From Octopus vulgaris (taxonomy: Eukaryota), in assembly GCA_951406725.2 (NCBI GenBank), contig OX597821.1, forward strand, positions 93,248,001 to 93,312,000: a stretch of 64,000 bases of DNA, in the 5' to 3' direction. Numbering within the stretch: the first letter of the stretch is position 1; each line of letters starts with the position of its first letter. The position numbers were made by a program, and so were the translations under genes. The notes beneath the pieces were generated by a model. That model worked only from the letters and a program-made list of their open reading frames with translations. It did not search any database and was not told the origin of the DNA. Positions 4,332 to 59,190 of this stretch are shown piece after piece.

Positions 4332-4375
4332 TATATATATATATATTCATATTCTTCTACTTAAAAGTGTGAGAT

Positions 4376-4492
4376 ATCTATGGCACCTAGGTTTCCCAAG
4401 CAGTCACCCATTGAAGCACTCCCTATGCTCAACGTTGCTTAACTTTGGTTATCAGACAAAAACCAGAGCATTCAATGTGATATGGCCATATA
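4376..4492 (-). pseudogene. Degenerate 5S rRNA-derived copy
   Basis: Reverse complement reads TATGGCCATATCACATTGAATGCTCTGGTTTTTGTCTGATAACCAAAGTTAAGCAACGTTGAGC...ATGGGTGACTGCTTGGGAAACCTAGGTGCCATAG, a 5S sequence with many CpG-type transitions. Confidence 0.85.
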
Positions 4493-4514
4493 TGTACACA
4501 CACACACTTATATA

Positions 4515-24523: not shown

Positions 24524-25793
24524 CGAGGGGCGTTCAATAAGTAATGCCCCTGACCCACTTCCCATAGCAGTAGAGCAACGACACTTGGCACAGTAATTAG
24601 TCTTTTCCTACATAGGAACTACCCAGAGTTATGCATTTCTCCCATCGTTTGATACAGCTCTGGAGACCGTTTTTGTAGAAGACCCCAGCTTGGTCCTCCA
24701 ACCACGACGTGACTTCAGAAATCAAGGCTGCATCATCTGGGAAACGCTTTCCTTTCAAAATCAACTTCATGGCTGGGAAGAGGTGAAAATCAGAGGGTGC
24801 AAGGGGAGGAGTTCATAGCTGCACGCCTGTGCTTCTGATCTGGCGACACGCGAGTTGTGGACCGGAGCGTTGTCCTGCAGGAGGAGGATGCCTTTGCTGA
24901 TCTTGCCCCGCCTCTTAATTTTGATAGCTTCTCTTAATTTCCTCAAAAGTGAAGCATAATAGGCTCCTGTAATTGTGGTACCCTTTGCCAGGAAATCTGT
25001 CATCACTACTCCGTCCTGGTCCCAGAAGACTGTGAGCATGACCTTGTCAGCGGAGGGCTGCACCCTTGCCTTCTTTGGAGGAGGTGAGTCACGGTGCTTT
25101 CACTGCATTGACTGGGCTTTGGTCTATGGATCATAGTGATGGACCCAGGTTTTATCCTGTGTGATCAGTCTTTTGAAAAATTTTGACTCATCTTCTTGGC
25201 ACATCTCCAAATTCATCCTCGAGCACTCAACGCGTTCTTGCTTCTGGAAAGGTGTGAGCAACCTGGAAATCCATCTGGCAGACACCTTTTGCATATGCAA
25301 ATGGTCATGAATGATAGTTTCCACAGACCCGGTACTAATCTTGACCTTATGGGCTATTTGGCGAATAGTTATGCGTTGACCTTCCAAAATGGCAGCCTCA
25401 ACTTGACGGACAGACGTCTCATCAACGGCAGAAGGGGGCGACCAGATCTGGGAGCTGTTTCCACAGAGTTCCGACTATGTTTGAATTCACAATGCCAGCG
25501 TTTTACAAGGTCATATGATGGGGCATCATCACCATAAGTTACTTTCATTTCATCAAAAGTCTCCCGTGGTGTGCGTCCTTTCAAATACAAAAACCAGATC
25601 ACTGCTCGACACTCAACAGGCTCCATTTCACACTTGACTCAGTTCAAACACCTGTAAATCAGAAACCACAATTAGTTCAGAGCTGTAATTCGCCACTTAA
25701 TCTATAGAGGTATAAATAAGTGCACATGCAAAATTTCAGCTAGATCTAACAAATGCAAGTGGGTCAGAGGCATTACTTATTGAACGCCCCTCG
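24524..25793 (-). mobile_element. Full-length (1270 bp) defective mariner transposon with TA TSD
   Basis: TIRs CGAGGGGCGTTCAATAAGTAATGCC.CTGACCCACTT at both ends; TA at 24522-24523 and 25794-25795. Confidence 0.97.
24597..25626 (-). pseudogene. Mariner DD34D transposase pseudogene
   Basis: MEPVECRAVIWFL..RSGRP, SARWISRLL (WVPHEL-like), ITQDKTWVHHYDP, LLQDNAPVH, LAPSDFHLF and KRWEKCITLGGSYV; has frameshifts, a stop codon and a deletion of the HPPYSPD motif. Confidence 0.93.
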
Positions 25794-42939: not shown

Positions 42940-43118
42940 CAAATGCTTTGTTTTCATAAGTTTTGAATTAAAATATTCCACCAGACCTTAGTCACAATTT
43001 ATGTTCCTAACACTAGCTTAATGATAACTAAGTTATTTTACTAAATTCTTTGTTATATTTAAAGTAATTGAAAGAAACACAGAGCATCTCAAAATAAATA
43101 CAGTAACAAAAAGGTTAA
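42940..43118. mobile_element. piggyBac-MITE-like right end (related end at ~57490-57624)
   Basis: Ends GTAACAAAAAGG-TTAA and GTTATGAAAGGG-TTAA with shared internal TATTTTA.TAAATTCTT; left ends not found. Confidence 0.45.
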
Positions 43119-43529
43119 GGAATACATACATTCCATGTGATAGTATTCATCAGAAGGTTTTTGAAAAGAGAACTGAGAGAGTTACTAGTACTAGCTGCTG
43201 TTGTTTTTGTTGTTGTTATTGTTGTTGATGTTGATGTTACTGGTAAAGCTGATGTTTTCACCACTGTCCATACTATCACCCTTCCTATAAATGCCACCAC
43301 CATCACCATCCTAGCATCACTGTCAGTATTTAGGGTTAAGCTCAGGAATGAGAATGTTGTTACTACTATCTGTATTTGTAGGGGAGGAGAGTTAATATTG
43401 TTGTTGTTGTTGCTGTTAAGGTTGTTACAGTCACTGCAGCGGTTGTTGCTGTTGTTACTAATATCATTGTTGCTGTTGTTCTTGTTGTTGCTGCTGTTTT
43501 TGTAAGTATCAGTATTCCATATTGTCCAG

Positions 43530-45075: not shown

Positions 45076-46559
45076 AGCTGCAAACATATATATATACTTG
45101 TGTGTATGGTCACACATGTGAATGTTTGAATTGATAAATTACAGCGATCCAAATCATATCTATTATTACCAACTCATTTACAATTTCACCAACTCACTTG
45201 CAATTCAAAGGGTAGGTGTATGTCTAATCACATGACACTTTATCTGGAGATCCATCAAATACAATGAACTGGAATTATTACCAATAAAATTCATAGCCGA
45301 GTTGGCGAAACTAGCAGTAACAGATATTCTTTGAATCACTGTAACGATACACTTAGTAATTTTTCACAAATATTTATTTCTCTTTTTTTATTCTATGTTC
45401 TCAATTGTTAATAGACTCTATAACATGTGTGTGTGTATGTGTGTGTGTGTGTATGTGTGTGTGTGTGTATGAGTATATTTGCATGTGTGTGTGCATGCAC
45501 ATATTTGCATATGTATCCAAATGTGTGTGTATATATGGTTAGAGCTTGTTGAATTGATCCAATGCTTTGCTGGTGTGTATATTGATTATTTTTGTCACTG
45601 TCTGTGGTTAGGCATTGGTGCGGTGCAGCTAAAATCAGATCTGTTATTTCTGCTTTTGCCCAGAGTTATTAAGCAATTGTTGGTTTTCTTCCTGTTTTAT
45701 TACTTCTTAGTTGAGTTTTGTAGAGTATTGATAATAGAGAAGTTAGTCTCTCTCTGTTTTTCTCTTCAGTATATTTTGGTATCCCATTTTAACTTTTGCC
45801 TTTTTTATTTTAACCTTTTTCTGAACATTTCTTCCTACCTAAATCATTTCCTACTGTGTGCAACAAATGTCACAAGTTATTACATAAGTAGTACCCTTAT
45901 ACTTTGTATATAAATTCTCAATTTTGCAGAACATATTTGTCAATATGTTCAGCTGCCCAGATTCACTGGCACCAACAAACACATCCACATCAGTTAATGT
46001 GCCTGCTTTAAGAATCATGCCTATATCATCATCATTTAGACCAAGCAGTTATTTAGGTCAGTGTTACATTAATTAATGATGCTTTTCAAGAGAGGTGTCT
46101 TAAAGAAATTCTCTAAATGGAATTGCTGCTGGGTATGTAATCAAGCCTAGAGTGACAGAGTCATTGATACAATCCAGAGATGTAGTGCTAGGTCACAGTA
46201 TACCAACTGAAGCCAGAAAGGTACTAGTTATCACAATGTTTCTGACAGTCATCATCGAATAGCAGTTACAACATAGCAGTGACAAATAGTAAAACAGCTA
46301 TAAACTCATTACTTTGGACAGCTTTTACCAATAGCCCAGATACTGCCATATAGAACAGGGACCAGTTCAATAACCAACTAGAAGAGCTGCAACCACACCT
46401 GCACAGGTGGGCTTACCAGACCACCATTTACCAATAACTTAAATATCTAACCTTTTTATAATCAATAGATTTTATGAATGGTGACAAAGCTTTCTATCAA
46501 TATGTATACATTCATTTCTGTACTGTACTGAGATATTATACATGGGTGAAAAAAACATG

Positions 46560-48480
46560 CACACACACTTGCTCCTGTCATTGGGCTCTCATTGCCATGT
46601 TGATAAAACCCACTGAGTCAGTCTATTTGACCCAGATCGGATTAAAGGGCATCAAAATCCACAAATTAGACTTTGCTTCTGACCCCAAATGCCAACTGAT
46701 TAACCCAGCTGAATCAGAAATCAAGCTGGAAAGTAAACATATACTGAGAAAGATCAACAATGACATAAGGAGGGCATTGAATGTCTCCCTATGACATAAT
46801 ACCAATGAAATTATTTCATGGTTTAAAGGAGAAGGTTCCCCTAATTTTATATAATAGATTTTTATCCATCTATATCGAAAAGGTTACTAGTTAAGGTGTC
46901 ATGTTCACTAGGAATTTTCCTGACATTACCTATAGGGATATAGACGCAATTATGCATGCTCGGAAAATGCTCCTGTTCAATAACGGTTCAGCCTGGGCCA
47001 CACAGACTGACCCAGTAGGTTCCTTCCATGTGGCAATCAGAGCATTTGGCAGCATGGATATCTTCAACCTCACAGGATTGTATATGTTGGACACCTTAAC
47101 GAAGTGGTTCTTGTCAGTCCTTTTTGGTCTCTACAGAGATGATGCTTCAACTATCTGTAGAAGCAATAACGGGCATACCTTAGATGGGTTTAGTAAGGAC
47201 CTAATTCATGCCCTTAGCTCCCTTGTCCTTAAGATTACAATAGAGACCAAACCTATCATTGTTAACATTTTAGACTATACATTGAACTTAGGGACCTGAT
47301 CCTACAGGTCCTATCACAAACCAAATGAAAGGCTGTCATACATTAATATAACCTCTTGCTACCCATCTATCATGATCAAGAACCTAGGGAAAAGTGTCAT
47401 TAAGACGATTTTCAACCTATCCTCTTGTAAAGAAGTTTTTGAAGTTACAACCCCCTAGTATGATGAGGTTTTGATGTACAGTGGGCTTAATTACTGCATC
47501 TCCTATATGCCAGGTCCTAACACCCACTAAAGGAAACACCACCATAAACTTGTTTGGTCTACCCCACCCTTTTCACTTAATGTCAAGACATGCATGGGAA
47601 GAATATTCCTGGATTTGTGGACAAATTCTTCATATGGTCACACAGATACGAGTTATTGTTTAATAGATACAATTTACAGGTCTCTTTCGAATGTGCTCCC
47701 AGTGATAAAAAAAGTATTAGTGAACATTCTTAAACTCCACACAGAGGCAAGATGCTCGTACATGGTTAGCAATGAATGCTCAGTGATGGAGGGGGGGTCA
47801 ATGCAACTCCAAATGATAGTATATGAGGTTGAGGTCATGTCCAGCAGCAGTGACAGCAGCAACTGCAATGGCACCAACAACACATCTGCCAGTAACAACA
47901 ATAGTGATAGCAATTTCAGCAGTTGCAGCAGCAGCAACACTACCAATGTTTCAAGCAATAGCAGCAGCTATGGCAGCAATAGCAACAGCAACACCAACAT
48001 CAACAATGCATCTGACACAAGCAACATCAGCAGCTATGATGATGGCAACTACAGCATCACCATCATGTCCAGCAATAACAGCAACAATGGCTGTGATACC
48101 AGCACCAGCACCAGAAATGGCTCTGGTAGCGACAATAGCAACAGCAATGATAACAACAACACTAGCAGCTGTAATACTACCAGCACAAGGACAGACATGG
48201 AAATATGTCAGATCTGCAGAGAGACTCTTCCAGCATGGTCTTAATAATCACAGGTCTTCCTTTAGGATACCAGAGAGGCACAATATCACATCCCTGGCCA
48301 ACTATAGATGGTGTTTAAAAGAGGAGACCATGCCTCAATGGGAGCAAACTATGTAAGCTTTACTTGGCTGGGAGAGCAAGAATCTTGAAAAATTTGCTTG
48401 ATCTGGGAGTATTCTTAAACTCAAAAAAATTGATGCTTAGTCAGTGCTCTCATCAGTGAAAATTCCTGTTGAAAACGTGA
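46560..48480 (+). mobile_element. Penelope-like retroelement (RT plus C-terminal GIY-YIG), decayed
   Basis: PKCQLINPAESEI, DFYPSISK, IMHARKMLLFN, GLYRDDA, LKITIE, YHKPNERLSYIN, VWSTPPFSLNVKTCMGRIFL, IVYEVEV...KYVRSAERLFQHGLNNHRSSFR...TSLANYRW and CSHQ*KFLL. The motif set resembles Naiad-type PLEs (recalled, not searched). Confidence 0.85.
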
Positions 48481-48835
48481 AATACCCCCTTTGCCAACTA
48501 GGGAAAAAGCAGTCAACTATATGCTGATGCATTTTAGATATGACTGAAACTGAACTAAGTGGGATAACTCCATCTTGCCTACACTTATTGCCAGCATGAT
48601 TTCATTCCCAAGTTTTCTGTTTACAAAATTTACCGGCCATGACATATTCCTTCCTCCATTTGTAGAGAAGTCATATACTCCAGCCAACGAGTCAGATGAG
48701 TCGTCTATACAACTGCATTTTATAGGTATGAAACCAATGGTCACTCTCTGACCAGACACAACAAACGACCTTTTAAGTATTACTTCTCCAATGTTTTAGA
48801 GTGTGTTTCTTGTTGGATATATGAACTACTGACCA

Positions 48836-54456: not shown

Positions 54457-54574
54457 GCCAGTGGGCATATCACGTTGAAAGTACCGGTTCTCGTCCGATC
54501 ACCGAAGTTAAGCAACATCGAGCCTAGTTAGTACTTAGATGGGTGACTGCTTGGGAAACCTTGGTGCTGTAAGC
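54457..54574 (+). pseudogene. 5S rRNA-derived sequence (head of a candidate SINE3 extending to ~54640)
   Basis: CATATCACGTTGAAAGTACCGGTTCTCGTCCGATCACCGAAGTTAAGCAACATCGAGCCTAGTTAGTACTTAGATGGGTGACTGCTTGGGAAACCTTGGTGCTGTAAGC, 118 nt overall, with A- and C-boxes; the 5' end is diverged. Confidence 0.9.
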
Positions 54575-55016
54575 ATTTTATAAAAAATGGCAGTGCCCCA
54601 GCATGGCCACAGCTCGTGAGCTGAAACTAGATAAAATAAAATTTGAAAAATAAAAAATATTGAAGAATAATAAATAGCAACAGCAATATACCATTTGGTA
54701 TAAATATACCTTTTGGTATTAATCCTGGCTTTAGTCGATATCAATTATTTTTAATAAGCCCTTTTTATATTAGTAGACCTTTTGATATTAACACTGTTTC
54801 TGTTGCTATTAATTGCTTTCTAACTCCACTGGCTATTTCTCACACCTGAATAGACACTGAGATTTAATATATATATCACTGACAAAGAAATCGCTGCTAT
54901 CTCTAGTTGTGGACATCTACCATTGACAAGGCCAAGGAAGGCTGGTATCACACGATCTATTAGTTCCAAGCGCAGTAGCAGACAATTATCTCCTGCTGGC
55001 AATACAAGCACATGTA

Positions 55017-55194
55017 TTAGCAAACGCCAGAACGTAAGTGAGCAAAATGAAGGCAAAGATATAAAATATAGATTAATCACAAACTAGGTTTCGTTGTTAA
55101 TGCTTACGTAATCATTTACGTAATTATCCACAACTCGTCAGTGTGATCGTCTTTGCAAATATAAATTGCAGAACTATGCACAAGACGTCTGCAT
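55017..55194. repeat. ~178-bp direct repeat, copy 1
   Basis: Nearly identical to 57062-57239 (offset 2045 bp). Confidence 0.95.
55070..55152 (-). ncRNA. Type I hammerhead ribozyme (predicted), copy 1
   Basis: Minus strand: AUCACA-CUGACGA-GUUGU[GGAUAAUUACGUAAAUGAUUACGUAAGCAUUA]ACAAC-GAAA-C-CUA-G-UU^UGUGAU. Conserved core, 6-bp stem I, 5-bp stem II base and short stem III. Confidence 0.8.
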
Positions 55195-55314
55195 ATTCAC
55201 CACAAGTCCATACGTGAGGTTCTCTTGTTGTAAGTAAAGCAGTATTCTGTGTTCCAACACAACATCCACTTTTAAGTAGTGATAAATATTTCCTGCTTCA
55301 TATCTCTTGAAGTA

Positions 55315-55565
55315 TCTTTTATCTTCTACTTGTTTCAGTCATTGGACTATGGCCATGCTGGGGCACCACCTTCAAGAATTTAGTTGACTGAATCAACCCC
55401 AGTACTTGATTTGTTTTCTTTCTTTTTAATCTGGTACTTATTCTATTGGTTTCTTTTTGCTGAGCCACTAAGTTATAGAGAGACAAACACACCACCAGCA
55501 GTTATCAAACAGTGCTAGAGTACAGCTACAAAGACATACACACACACATGCACACATACATATAT
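55315..55565 (-). mobile_element. SINE family A (older variant) 3' half; likely matching 5' half at ~57352-57465
   Basis: The tail-side consensus ends in the internal microsatellite; the head-side consensus resumes after (TA)n at 57352. Confidence 0.7.
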
Positions 55566-55567
55566 TT

Positions 55568-56670
55568 ACAAGGGAGAGTCAAAAATTATATGCACTCTTG
55601 TTTTTCCCATGTCTCCTCACAAAAGCAGGGGATAAATAAGTACGTTATTTCTCTATATACTTTCCTTCCTTTTCGATGTACTTGGTCCAATGGTCCACAA
55701 GTGTATGTATTCCCTCCAAGAAGAAGGTTTTCGGTTGGTCATGCAACTACTTATGCACTGCTTCCTTCACATCTTCATCAGTAGGAAATCAGCAACCTTG
55801 TAAACCATTTTTGACTAATCCAGAGTTATGATAATCAGAAGGGGCAAAATCTGGGCTGTAGGCAGGGTGATCCAGCACTGAAGAAAGGCTGAAGACGCTC
55901 GACCTTTATTCTCTAGAAAAACGACCACGTGTGGTGATCTCATTCTTGCTCACAACATCATAAGCGGAAAGTGTAACCTCTCGAAAGAGCTGTTCTTCAC
56001 TCCTGCTCCAGAGCGTCGGCTGTGGGGTCACTCTGAAAAGCTCTATCTGCAACGATTTCATCTCAATCGAAGGAGAGGGGCTTCCTCCGTCCAGGTTGCG
56101 GATCCGTGGAATAAGCTGCTGGATGAGATGGGGAAGATGCCGACGACCACTCGGTTCAAAGTCTCCCTTGACCTCAAGTGGCCTGAACTCTTTACATGAA
56201 CACCACCCTGTACATAACTCTATGTCCCCCTACATGGTCTTGCTTTTTGCTTTTTGAGCCAAAAATTAACCAACTTCAAAACCCAGTCGGTTAATGGTTT
56301 CAATGGTTTGGGCAGCAGTATTTGGGCATGCATTGTCATACAACAACAAAACTTTCTTTGACAATAGGCTTCAGGAATTGGTGCAAATTGCTGACTTCAG
56401 CTTGTTGGCACTGTATCTTGCACTGTTGATCATACACCCCTTTTCCAGAGAAATCAGATCACTGCTCTTTGTTTTTTTTTTTTGGTGGTGCACATTGCTA
56501 GGGGATCATCCATACTTACACTGTAAAGCCAGAGAAAAAATGGCATGATAAGGTTCAAACTTTGATCACATGAACACAATAGTACCAACTATAAGCATGC
56601 ATGCAGTGTGATAATAATAAAGATATGTCATGGTGAAAGTGCAGATAATTTTTTATTTCTCCTTGTGTAT
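55568..56670 (-). mobile_element. Degenerate, internally deleted mariner with a nested CR1 fragment
   Basis: TIR-like ends TACAAGGGAGAGTCAAAAATTATATGCAC / GTGCAGATAATTTTTTATTTCTCCTTG; minus-strand YSPDFAPSDY, RWxKxI-like and DNACP remnants. Confidence 0.7.
55878..56277 (+). mobile_element. CR1-clade LINE 3' fragment
   Basis: EERLKTLDLYSLEKR..GDLILAHNII..GHSEKL..SVQVADPWNKL..FKVSLD, the canonical CR1 C-terminus. Confidence 0.85.
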
Positions 56671-56679
56671 ATATATACA

Positions 56680-56965
56680 TCATCATCATCATCATCATTA
56701 TTAAGCGTCCGCTTTCCATGCTAGCATAGGTTGGATGGTTCAACTGGGGTCTGTGAAGCCAGAAGGCTGCATCAGGCCCAGTCTGATCTGGCAGTGTTTC
56801 TACGGCTGGATGCCCTTCCTAATGCCAACCACTCCATGAGTGTAGTGGGTGCTTTTTACGTGCCACCCGCACAGGTGCCAGACGGAGCTGGCAGACGGCC
56901 ACGGACGGATGGTGCTTTTTATGTGCCACCGGCACGGGGGCCAGGCGAGGCTGGCAATGGCCCAT
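56680..56965 (-). mobile_element. SINE-like family D with about two tandem units
   Basis: Consensus match to the copies at 5820 and 44508. Confidence 0.8.
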
Positions 56966-57061
56966 ATATATAAAAGGGATGACCTGTAAGTGGACATCCA
57001 TTATGCTAGAAGAAGATCCGCTATGGTCTTACCACTAATAAAAGAAAGTTCTCAAGAAAAT

Positions 57062-57239
57062 TTAGCAAACGCCAGAACGTAAGCGAGCAAGACAGATGAA
57101 AAGATATAAAATATAGATTAATCACAAACTAGGTTTCGTTATTAATGCTTACGTAATCATTTACGTAATTATCCACAACTCGTCAGTGTGATCGTCTTCG
57201 CAAATATAATTTGCAGAACTATACACAAGACGTCTGCAT
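57062..57239. repeat. ~178-bp direct repeat, copy 2
   Basis: Nearly identical to 55017-55194. Confidence 0.95.
57115..57197 (-). ncRNA. Type I hammerhead ribozyme (predicted), copy 2
   Basis: Same core as copy 1; the only difference seen within the motif turns a stem II G-C pair into G-U (ACAAC to AUAAC). Confidence 0.8.
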
Positions 57240-59190
57240 GAGATAGAACATGTATACAGTTCCACCAATTACAATTGGGGTCACTTTTTAAAAGCCTTCG
57301 TTTTGGTGCACCAAACTAATTCTCTGCAGTGAATTTTGCCAGTTAGAGAACATATATATATACGATGGACTTCTTTCAGTTTCTGTCTACCAAATCCATT
57401 TACAAGGTTTTGGTTAGTCTGAGGTTATTGTAGAAGAGACACTAGCCCATGATGCCACACAGTGGCAGTAAAGTTTGCTCTAGCAGAACATCCATGTTTA
57501 AGTGGGAATAAATATTACCAGCTTGATAATGACAATGCTATTTTATTAAATTCTTCCTTATTTCTAAAACTAAGCGAAACGAAGGCAGTGTATTTCAATA
57601 GAAATATGGTTATGAAAGGGTTAAAGATAATATTCCACTGCTTATAATGATATAATGTATCTGTCCATGGTACCTGTTTACATTGAAATGAGTCTGGCTG
57701 GCTGGCTGGCTGGCAAGACTGTCATAATAATGTACATTGTATAAGTGATGGAGAAGATACGAAGCATCAGTGTCTGGGAAGAAGGGGGAAACCCTATCAC
57801 TAAGTCGATCAAACAATATAAAAACTAATTTCATGGTGAGAAAACAACAACAATAACAACAACAGTGGTAACTCTTCAAATTAACTACACTAAGCCAAAA
57901 GGGTAAGAACAAAACAGAAAAAGAACAAATCGGGAAAAATAAAATTACAGAAAACAAAAACCAGTTTATGACATTTAAATCCCATAAATCAATTATATCA
58001 GAGATACCCAAGAACTGTTAATGTCTGAACAAATCAGGAGAAGTACTGATGGCTTCTGGTTGAACATTAAAAATTCAAGTAGTGGGAGGTATTTGTTTAT
58101 TTATTTTTAAATGACAGATATGGCCTGATTAGCTGAACAGAAAAAAAAATGTAAAACAATGCAAACAACGACAATAATAATAATAATAATAGTAACAATA
58201 ATAACAGCAACAACAATGAAATGGAAAAAGACTCTAGAGAGAAAAAAAAACATAAAATAAAATCTTGATAAAAACCCCAGGGAGGTGGGGTGAAATTAAC
58301 ACAAAAAAAAATGAAAATTAATGTGGATTTATGACAGCTTGAGAAAAAAGATCTTTAAAATGATTTATTATTATTATAATTATTATTAGAATAATAATTT
58401 TTTAAACGTTATTGTGGCAATTATTGGAGAGAGATACAGACAGACACAGACCAAGATAAGCTTTCAGTAAGCAATGTTTTTGACCTGGTTTCAATCCTTA
58501 GCTGTAAACATTTGTCTTTGCTTACGTTGCCAACATCCTTGAAATGGAATGAATGCTACAGTTTCCCATTTCCATTTTCCTTTTTTTAAAAAAAGATCAA
58601 TATTATCATCACTATTGTTATTACCAGTATAGTATTGCACTGATTGCTTTTATTGTTTCAAATCGCATTTGCAGTGACTGTCTTTCATCTGTTTAAGGTC
58701 AATAAGATTTACAATGCTGTCTATTCTGCTAAATTAACCTCTGCACCAAGGCTAATAAAACAAATAATACCATGTTAAATGTGCATGCAAGCATACATGT
58801 GCATGCACATACATGCATCTCTGATTAGGTTACATAACTGGAAGAAAAATGTTTAAGCCAATATTAATCAGAAGCAATGCAGCAAGCTGGCAGAATCATT
58901 AGCACACTGGACAAAATGCCTAACAGCATTTCATCCGTCTTTATATTCTGAGTTCAAATTCCACCAAGGTTGACTTTGCCTTTCATTTTTCTGCTGTCAA
59001 TAGAATAAGTACCAGCTGAGTTCTGGGGTCGATGTAATTGATTTACCTCCTTCTCTGAAATTGCTGGCCAAAATTTGAAAGTGATATTAACCATAAAGTT
59101 AAACGGAAAAGCATGAAATATTTCCTCTATAGATATGACCAATATTTGAATGTATTTGATACTGCTAACCATCATTATTGTAACAAACAT

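Follow-up and report, generated by a model that had tools for sequence, protein, structure and literature searches.

A dispersed 178-nt repeat with a type I hammerhead motif in Octopus vulgaris and its possible relation to Penelope-like elements

The 64,000-nucleotide stretch of the Octopus vulgaris genome analysed here (the window) is AT-rich, repeat-packed animal DNA in which two near-identical hammerhead motifs lie about 2 kb apart. This raises the question of what kind of element carries them and how two copies came to lie so close to each other. A preliminary description, made from the letters of the sequence, took the pair for a candidate cephalopod retrozyme or a Penelope pseudo-LTR (pLTR).

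Hammerhead motifs in a direct repeat

The two copies of the unit form a 178-bp direct repeat (55017-55194 and 57062-57239, both with the ribozyme on the minus strand) with a spacing of 2045 bp and an identity of 94%, or 11 differences, in agreement with the near-identical repeats 2045 bp apart that had been described. On the minus strand each copy carries a complete type I hammerhead motif, located at 55075-55148 in copy 1 and at 57120-57193 in copy 2, with the core CUGANGA...GAAA, the NUH triplet and the stems I, II and III of this class. Stem I is GAUCACA/UGUGAUU in both copies (55148-55142/55081-55075 in copy 1); the pairing AUCACA/UGUGAU proposed earlier is present, as is its extension by AGA/UCU in 101-nt folds, and the stem, at 7 bp, is one pair longer than had been stated. 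In both copies it is followed by the core CUGACGA and a 5-bp stem II (in copy 1 at 55141-55135 and 55134-55130/55097-55093, respectively), by GAAA (55092-55089 in copy 1), and by a 2-bp stem III with a CUA loop and a GUU triplet (helix III strand 55089-55083 in copy 1). Stem II, in which one pair of copy 2 is G-U, is capped in both copies by a 32-nt arm (55098-55129 in copy 1) bearing a UUACGUAA-AUGA-UUACGUAA hairpin, and the distance from A9 to G12 in copy 1 amounts to 42 nt. The octamer is self-complementary and occurs twice in each hairpin (55104-55123 and 57149-57168; in copy 1 at 55123-55116 and 55111-55104), an arrangement that permits extra intermolecular pairing; as DNA it presumably resembles a bZIP binding site. 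N17, a U, corresponds to 55082 in copy 1 and 57127 in copy 2, and the cut sites predicted from the hammerhead NUH rule are between 55082 and 55081 and between 57127 and 57126, the same as those given before.

A type I descriptor run over both strands of the window returned two matches, which are the two copies, and no third type I hammerhead, whereas 100 block-wise dinucleotide shuffles of the window gave one loose match in total and no strict one; the motif pair is therefore confirmed as real and far beyond chance, and the complete minus-strand hammerhead claimed for each copy stands. Neither copy matched Rfam, at the gathering score or at E≤10, and the Rfam check suggested in the preliminary description thus came back empty, the models probably missing the motif because of the long stem II arm.

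One of the 11 differences between the copies falls inside the 75-nt ribozyme, where it changes a stem II pair of copy 2 from G-C to G-U, as expected from the earlier remark that the differences lie outside the core or leave the pairing intact. The scarcity of differences has P=0.02, or P=0.20 if the patch 55046-55054 is taken as one event. This single difference would favour a pair kept by the host, in which a double hammerhead cuts a long minus-strand transcript and frees the 2-kb piece between the sites, but the probability of 0.20 with the mutation patch counted once, a dimer helix predicted to be broken in both copies (see below) and the lack of any recognised host exon among 241 frames of the window all speak against such a function, which appears highly improbable.

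A dispersed family in a patchwork of other repeats

The stretch was found in 7 of 24 listed sequencing runs (4 studies, two organism labels), with no RNA run among those listed as containing it, which has no bearing on expression, and the family was viewed through contigs of four public runs aligned at 80% likeness to 54756-55295, that is, to copy 1 only. Dozens of distinct contigs from these four runs overlap the unit at each position. Summed depth peaks at 85-495 times the median for the listed long single contigs, a rough ratio that is not a copy number but suggests a dispersed family whose copies number roughly in the tens to hundreds. Depth declines toward the 5′ end of the unit, which several loci still reach. 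The 178-nt unit is shown by these contigs to be a many-copy, non-coding dispersed repeat with a hammerhead motif and many diverged copies, and the suggestion of a Penelope-type type I hammerhead motif in a repeat family is borne out.

The figures on variation come from the listed part of the data, which comprises 40 of the 140 variable rows (unphased), 15 of the 58 joints and 32 of the 2797 pieces. The 18 listed variable sites in the unit all avoid the 30 positions taken up by the core, stem I and the helix III stem (P=0.005-0.03), an apparent conservation that carries the caveat that alignments seed on conserved parts. The listed sites are at N7, which is free and varies between C and U, in loop III, in the long arm 55098-55129 (8 of the 18), at the outer stem II pair and outside the ribozyme. 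Positions 55126 and 55101 change from U-A to C-G at similar frequencies in the unphased rows, and with the majority letter at 55130 the fifth pair of stem II seems to be lost. At 55085, a letter other than that of the window copies is found in 24, 46, 34 and 43 contigs of the four runs, respectively, and makes up 87-94% of the depth. Minority letters are also common to both window copies at 55062 and 55130, and the best explanation is therefore that the two are close kin, through a minority subfamily or local copying, and not the opposite termini of a single element.

What separates the copies is a mosaic of other repeats, not a split tandem unit. Copy 1 interrupts an unrelated repeat family, here called F, which continues outside the unit at 55195-55290 and recurs as another piece at 57465-57528. 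In all four runs, F paralogues connect 54997 with 55193 through 22 letters where the unit would be, and in one run they connect 55012 with 55198 through 12 letters; the sides of these empty-site joints are about 23 letters long at 80% likeness. Since F paralogues cross the site without the unit, there is moderate evidence that copy 1 is an insertion into F, which is more abundant than the unit family. The F piece at 57465-57528 accounts for a 75% repeat (55239-55302/57465-57528) that had been considered as a duplicated exon or a part of the unit and was dropped. Family F (54779-55016, 55195-55290 and 57465-57528) is itself abundant and internally repeated or variable in order, with many listed joints between 54779-55000 and 55216-55290, and includes a hairpin-forming segment.

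Copy 2 occupies a different host repeat, a split SINE, and the alternative placement of this copy in the (TA)n of such a SINE, raised in the preliminary description, proves correct. The SINE-like repeat has its first half at 55315-55567 and its second at 57358-57465, and its (TA)n took later insertions; the halves are at most 37 nt apart in eight of nine other copies in the window, 125 nt in the ninth and 1791 nt here. Between them lies a decayed DNA transposon on the minus strand with inverted ends at TA (55568-56669), which has no Pfam match and which we take to be mariner-like from motifs judged by eye, followed by a SINE-like repeat of younger age that ends in (ATC)n (56668-56962; matched at 87-90% in other parts of the window) and a 377-bp piece (56973-57349) within which copy 2 lies. 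In this piece the unit has minus-strand flanks of 89 nt (56973-57061) and 110 nt (57240-57349), both bounded by (TA)n, of which the former is either the same insertion as copy 2 or an older insert nesting the unit. No terminal direct repeat was found in the 377-bp piece, the longest shared word being 6 nt.

Several further repeats were noted in the window. Two 5S rRNA-like copies at 54457-54575 (plus strand, 440 bp from copy 1) and 4375-4493 (minus strand) score 91 and 73 bits with Rfam, respectively, and are probably pseudogenes or 5S-derived SINE heads. The repeat pieces at 57517-57627 and 43012-43121 end in AAAGGGTTAA, which we assume to be like a piggyBac-type MITE end, and a mariner transposase remnant (Pfam PF01359 and PF17906) lies at 24770-25638 on the minus strand.

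The preliminary description had also expected that removal of the intervening insertions would leave a repeat unit of about 390 bp, which would make the locus a tandem retrozyme pushed apart by later insertions. The copies do have the same orientation and are close kin, and the size would fit the 350-390 bp given for mussel retrozymes (PMC7229834), but the residue consists of unrelated pieces, F crosses the copy 1 site without the unit, and copy 2 lies inside the microsatellite of the SINE. Furthermore, the outer flanks of the copies are no more alike than shuffled sequence, apart from the 64-nt F piece (their scores were matched by 46 and 78 of 300 shuffles), and no end-to-start joint of the unit occurs among the 15 of 58 joints listed. 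The tandem unit is thereby largely refuted at this locus.

Predicted folding and the ends of the unit

The two copies have fold z-scores of -3.0 and -2.7, and the lowest-energy fold differs from the active one, keeping stems I and II and pairing C3-U4-G5 with loop III and helix III. The predicted share of the active monomer is about 1.6e-4, and since it is equally low with the family-majority letter, poor monomer folding is, as far as the fold predictions go, a family trait. The family majority has a short palindromic helix III, the near-palindrome ACC-N-GGU, which would form 6 of 7 pairs as a self-duplex at -5.5 kcal/mol; the window copies lack it, their ACCUAGU forming 4 of 7 pairs at +2.7 kcal/mol. 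The same one-letter change from G to A in loop III (position 55085 in copy 1) is present in both, and it is predicted to break the dimer palindrome and to favour the misfold that ties up C3-U4-G5. The window copies would accordingly be weak both as monomers and as dimers in these models, and both are likely decayed. The earlier term "intact-looking" is appropriate for the complete motif and inappropriate for helix III, where both copies depart from the family majority at the dimer-palindrome position, and the pair serves as an example that genomic hammerheads of intact appearance can be crippled at this very place. Folded as circles, copy 1, copy 2 and the 377-bp piece have z-scores of -2.4, -1.3 and -1.2, respectively.

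Among the listed contig pieces from other loci, two begin at 55017 and seven end at 55186-55194, and five of the latter seven continue into other sequence for 210-688 letters; these shared end points are drawn from copy 1 alone and could be just where copy 1 stops within a longer element. Close to both ends is a potential closing helix on the minus strand, in which the 5′ arm 55184-55192 of copy 1 pairs with the 3′ arm 55020-55028, including two G-U pairs, and which in copy 2 corresponds to 57237-57229/57073-57065. This helix, formed by the 14 nt at either end of the unit, has 9 bp on the ribozyme strand versus 3 bp on the other, the end pairing being confined to the ribozyme strand because of the two G-U pairs, and 9-bp end pairing is reached by 0.8% of 20000 random 178-nt stretches of the window. 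The helix is stable in the isolated unit, with pair probabilities of 0.92-1.0, and lost in three of four folds with flanks. The minus-strand RNA is modelled as a rod with paired ends.

The same ends might be read as the imperfect inverted ends of a MITE-like DNA element that captured a hammerhead and is mobilised by a DNA transposase, given that seven of the nine end positions are Watson-Crick complementary and that the unit is short, non-coding and dispersed. Both remaining positions, however, are G-U on the ribozyme strand, which points to pairing of RNA, the ribozyme core positions appear conserved among the listed sites, and the two copies share no target duplication, none being evident at either copy on inspection of the sequence; the site of copy 1 is TATATT-like, and copy 2 with its flanks is in (TA)n. 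A DNA element of this kind is therefore quite unlikely.

Origin of the unit and comparison with known systems

No ORF lies between or beside the copies, and translations of the 89-nt and 110-nt flanks gave no protein match at the Pfam cut-off or in a protein search, both of which are weak tests. Among the 241 frames of the window, only two mariner pieces at 24.8-25.6 kb exceed the curated Pfam cut-offs. A decayed Hydra-clade Penelope-like element, with reverse transcriptase, a GIY-YIG domain at the C-terminal end, stops, frameshifts and a low-complexity insert, is present at 46498-48474 on the plus strand; its protein is close by eye to Hydra-1_Obim of Octopus bimaculoides, and a worn hammerhead-like motif follows it at about 48520-48560. 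This remnant, 7 kb away at 46.5-48.5 kb, was rejected as a partner of the unit, as it is on the other strand and has a different hammerhead. An assignment of the unit to an Octopus Naiad "half-core" was likewise rejected, the words of the unit being absent from the supplement, where a word split by a line break could be missed, and the 3′ ends of Naiad_Obim and Naiad_Ovul being unlike it where shown.

In the best reading, Penelope-like elements carry the unit along as a short non-coding passenger, which is either a solo pLTR-like repeat or a retrozyme monomer. We give a probability of about 0.5 to the unit being a non-coding Penelope-type hammerhead repeat, likely spread by an autonomous Penelope-like element through its reverse transcriptase and endonuclease, with both window copies likely decayed. 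In such a mechanism the minus-strand RNA would fold as a rod closed by its paired ends, and because the ribozyme would hardly fold as a monomer, uncut or re-closed RNA could survive as a template, which the autonomous element may then copy into AT-rich nicks. Cutting after GUU would need two copies paired through the helix III palindrome. Some support for these steps comes from a Penelope enzyme for which uncut RNA is described as the main template, with an internal start and nicks at ATT (PMC11167929). The model does not explain why two closely related copies should lie 2 kb from each other when the family numbers only hundreds, for which local copying is possible.

The main competing reading, which we regard as a tentative but serious one, sees in the copies end fragments, or pLTRs, of a longer autonomous Penelope-like element, with the true insertion at 56973-57349 (377 bp) and copy 1 as a shorter piece of it. 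A single (TA)n insertion is simpler than a nested one, and one frame of the 89-nt flank resembles by eye the start of a Penelope ORF. Furthermore, Hydra and many Naiad families, those of Octopus included, target (TA)n (PMC8557442), and in an anole element the hammerhead contains the start of the ORF and the copy ends 111-118 nt into the ORF (PMC11167929). Against this, the flanks lack a protein match in the weak tests above, both shared end points are exactly at the foot of the 9-bp helix, and several listed loci continue past the 5′ end for 210-688 letters at single-contig depth. The Naiad, Chlamys and Hydra consensus files, in which line breaks can hide words, also lack the words of the unit family.

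A further, rather speculative reading, to which we attach a low probability, is a retrozyme that does without tandem copies: a 178-nt rod RNA whose paired ends leave a 5-nt loop would circularise and be reverse transcribed once around, starting at this loop, giving hundreds of fixed-end solo copies, with the 42-nt stem II hiding the unit from Rfam and from short-spacer descriptors. If so, the counts of cephalopod hammerheads would be far too low. The unit represents an additional hammerhead family of cephalopods, one that has a long stem II and paired ends and that was missed by the Rfam library. Should the fixed 178-nt ends hold genome-wide, they would provide a clean test of solo retrozyme origin, between a linear uncut template and a circle, and would also bear on the purpose of Penelope hammerheads, which the cited papers leave open in the parts drawn on here.

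Scans with the motif pattern yielded 0 and 13 loci in metagenomes, 2 and 54 in viral contigs and 1 in prokaryote genomes; the first 69 all lack one or both of the stems and are unmatched to the unit by blastn, and the 70th has no match to its stem I by eye. Some of these loci are unrelated bacterial or phage hammerhead-like motifs. An identical hammerhead-like motif with a 6-bp stem II, unrelated to the octopus unit, is shared by 12 viral-contig loci (L018, L019, L029, L033-L035, L039, L046, L050, L052, L055 and L059). The unit family was not found in the texts and the two supplements searched, Repbase, Dfam, the Zenodo TE library and Lunse et al. 2017 being outside the comparison, and the available part of PMC8967140 makes no mention of ribozymes. 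Octopus Penelope-like hammerheads are already in print, since the table of PMC8557442 includes Hydra-1_oBim, and what is new, within the literature searched, is the 178-nt family. In favour of the passenger reading, O. vulgaris is listed with 190 Penelope-like families, 31 of them recently active (PMC13282606).

The comparison with known systems is based on parts of the cited sources. The animal non-LTR retrozymes (Cervera and de la Pena 2020, PMC7229834; Li, Clavereau and Pollet 2026, 10.64898/2026.07.22.740005) are likewise non-coding with a type I hammerhead, and the unit is like them in its low GC content (35%), its place in the 170-400 nt range and its predicted self-paired fold; dispersed retrozyme monomers are known from Xenopus (10.64898/2026.07.22.740005). 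Unlike them, the unit has no head-to-tail array at this locus or among the 15 of 58 joints listed and no canonical contact between loops 1 and 2, its stem I being open and its stem II long, and it is known from DNA contigs, circular RNA being the expressed form of the retrozymes. The Schistosome SINE-like hammerhead repeats (PMC6765202) are also short, dispersed and non-autonomous; they have a promoter before the ribozyme and are often in arrays.

The closest likeness appears to be to the pLTR hammerheads of Penelope-like elements, described by Cervera and de la Pena 2014 (PMC4209133), for which solo motifs are the commonest state and cleavage is reported to proceed slowly and as dimers (PMC4209133; reviewed in PMC6765202). 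The A9-G12 distance of 42 nt in the unit compares with 12 to about 26 nt in the Hydra table, two plant PLE-X motifs being longer (PMC8557442), and, unlike with Penelope pLTRs, no ORF was linked to the unit and its sequence differs from Hydra-1_oBim and from the Octopus Naiad 3′ ends seen. In Hydra-clade elements, Hydra-1_oBim included, helix III is commonly palindromic with a 1-nt centre and the cut is often after U (PMC8557442 File S2). Type I topology, a tiny palindromic helix III with a 1-nt centre, here in the family majority, a cut after U, here predicted, mostly solo copies, apparent AT-rich or (TA)n sites and the same kind of host are shared between the unit and the Penelope pLTR hammerheads (PMC4209133, PMC8557442).
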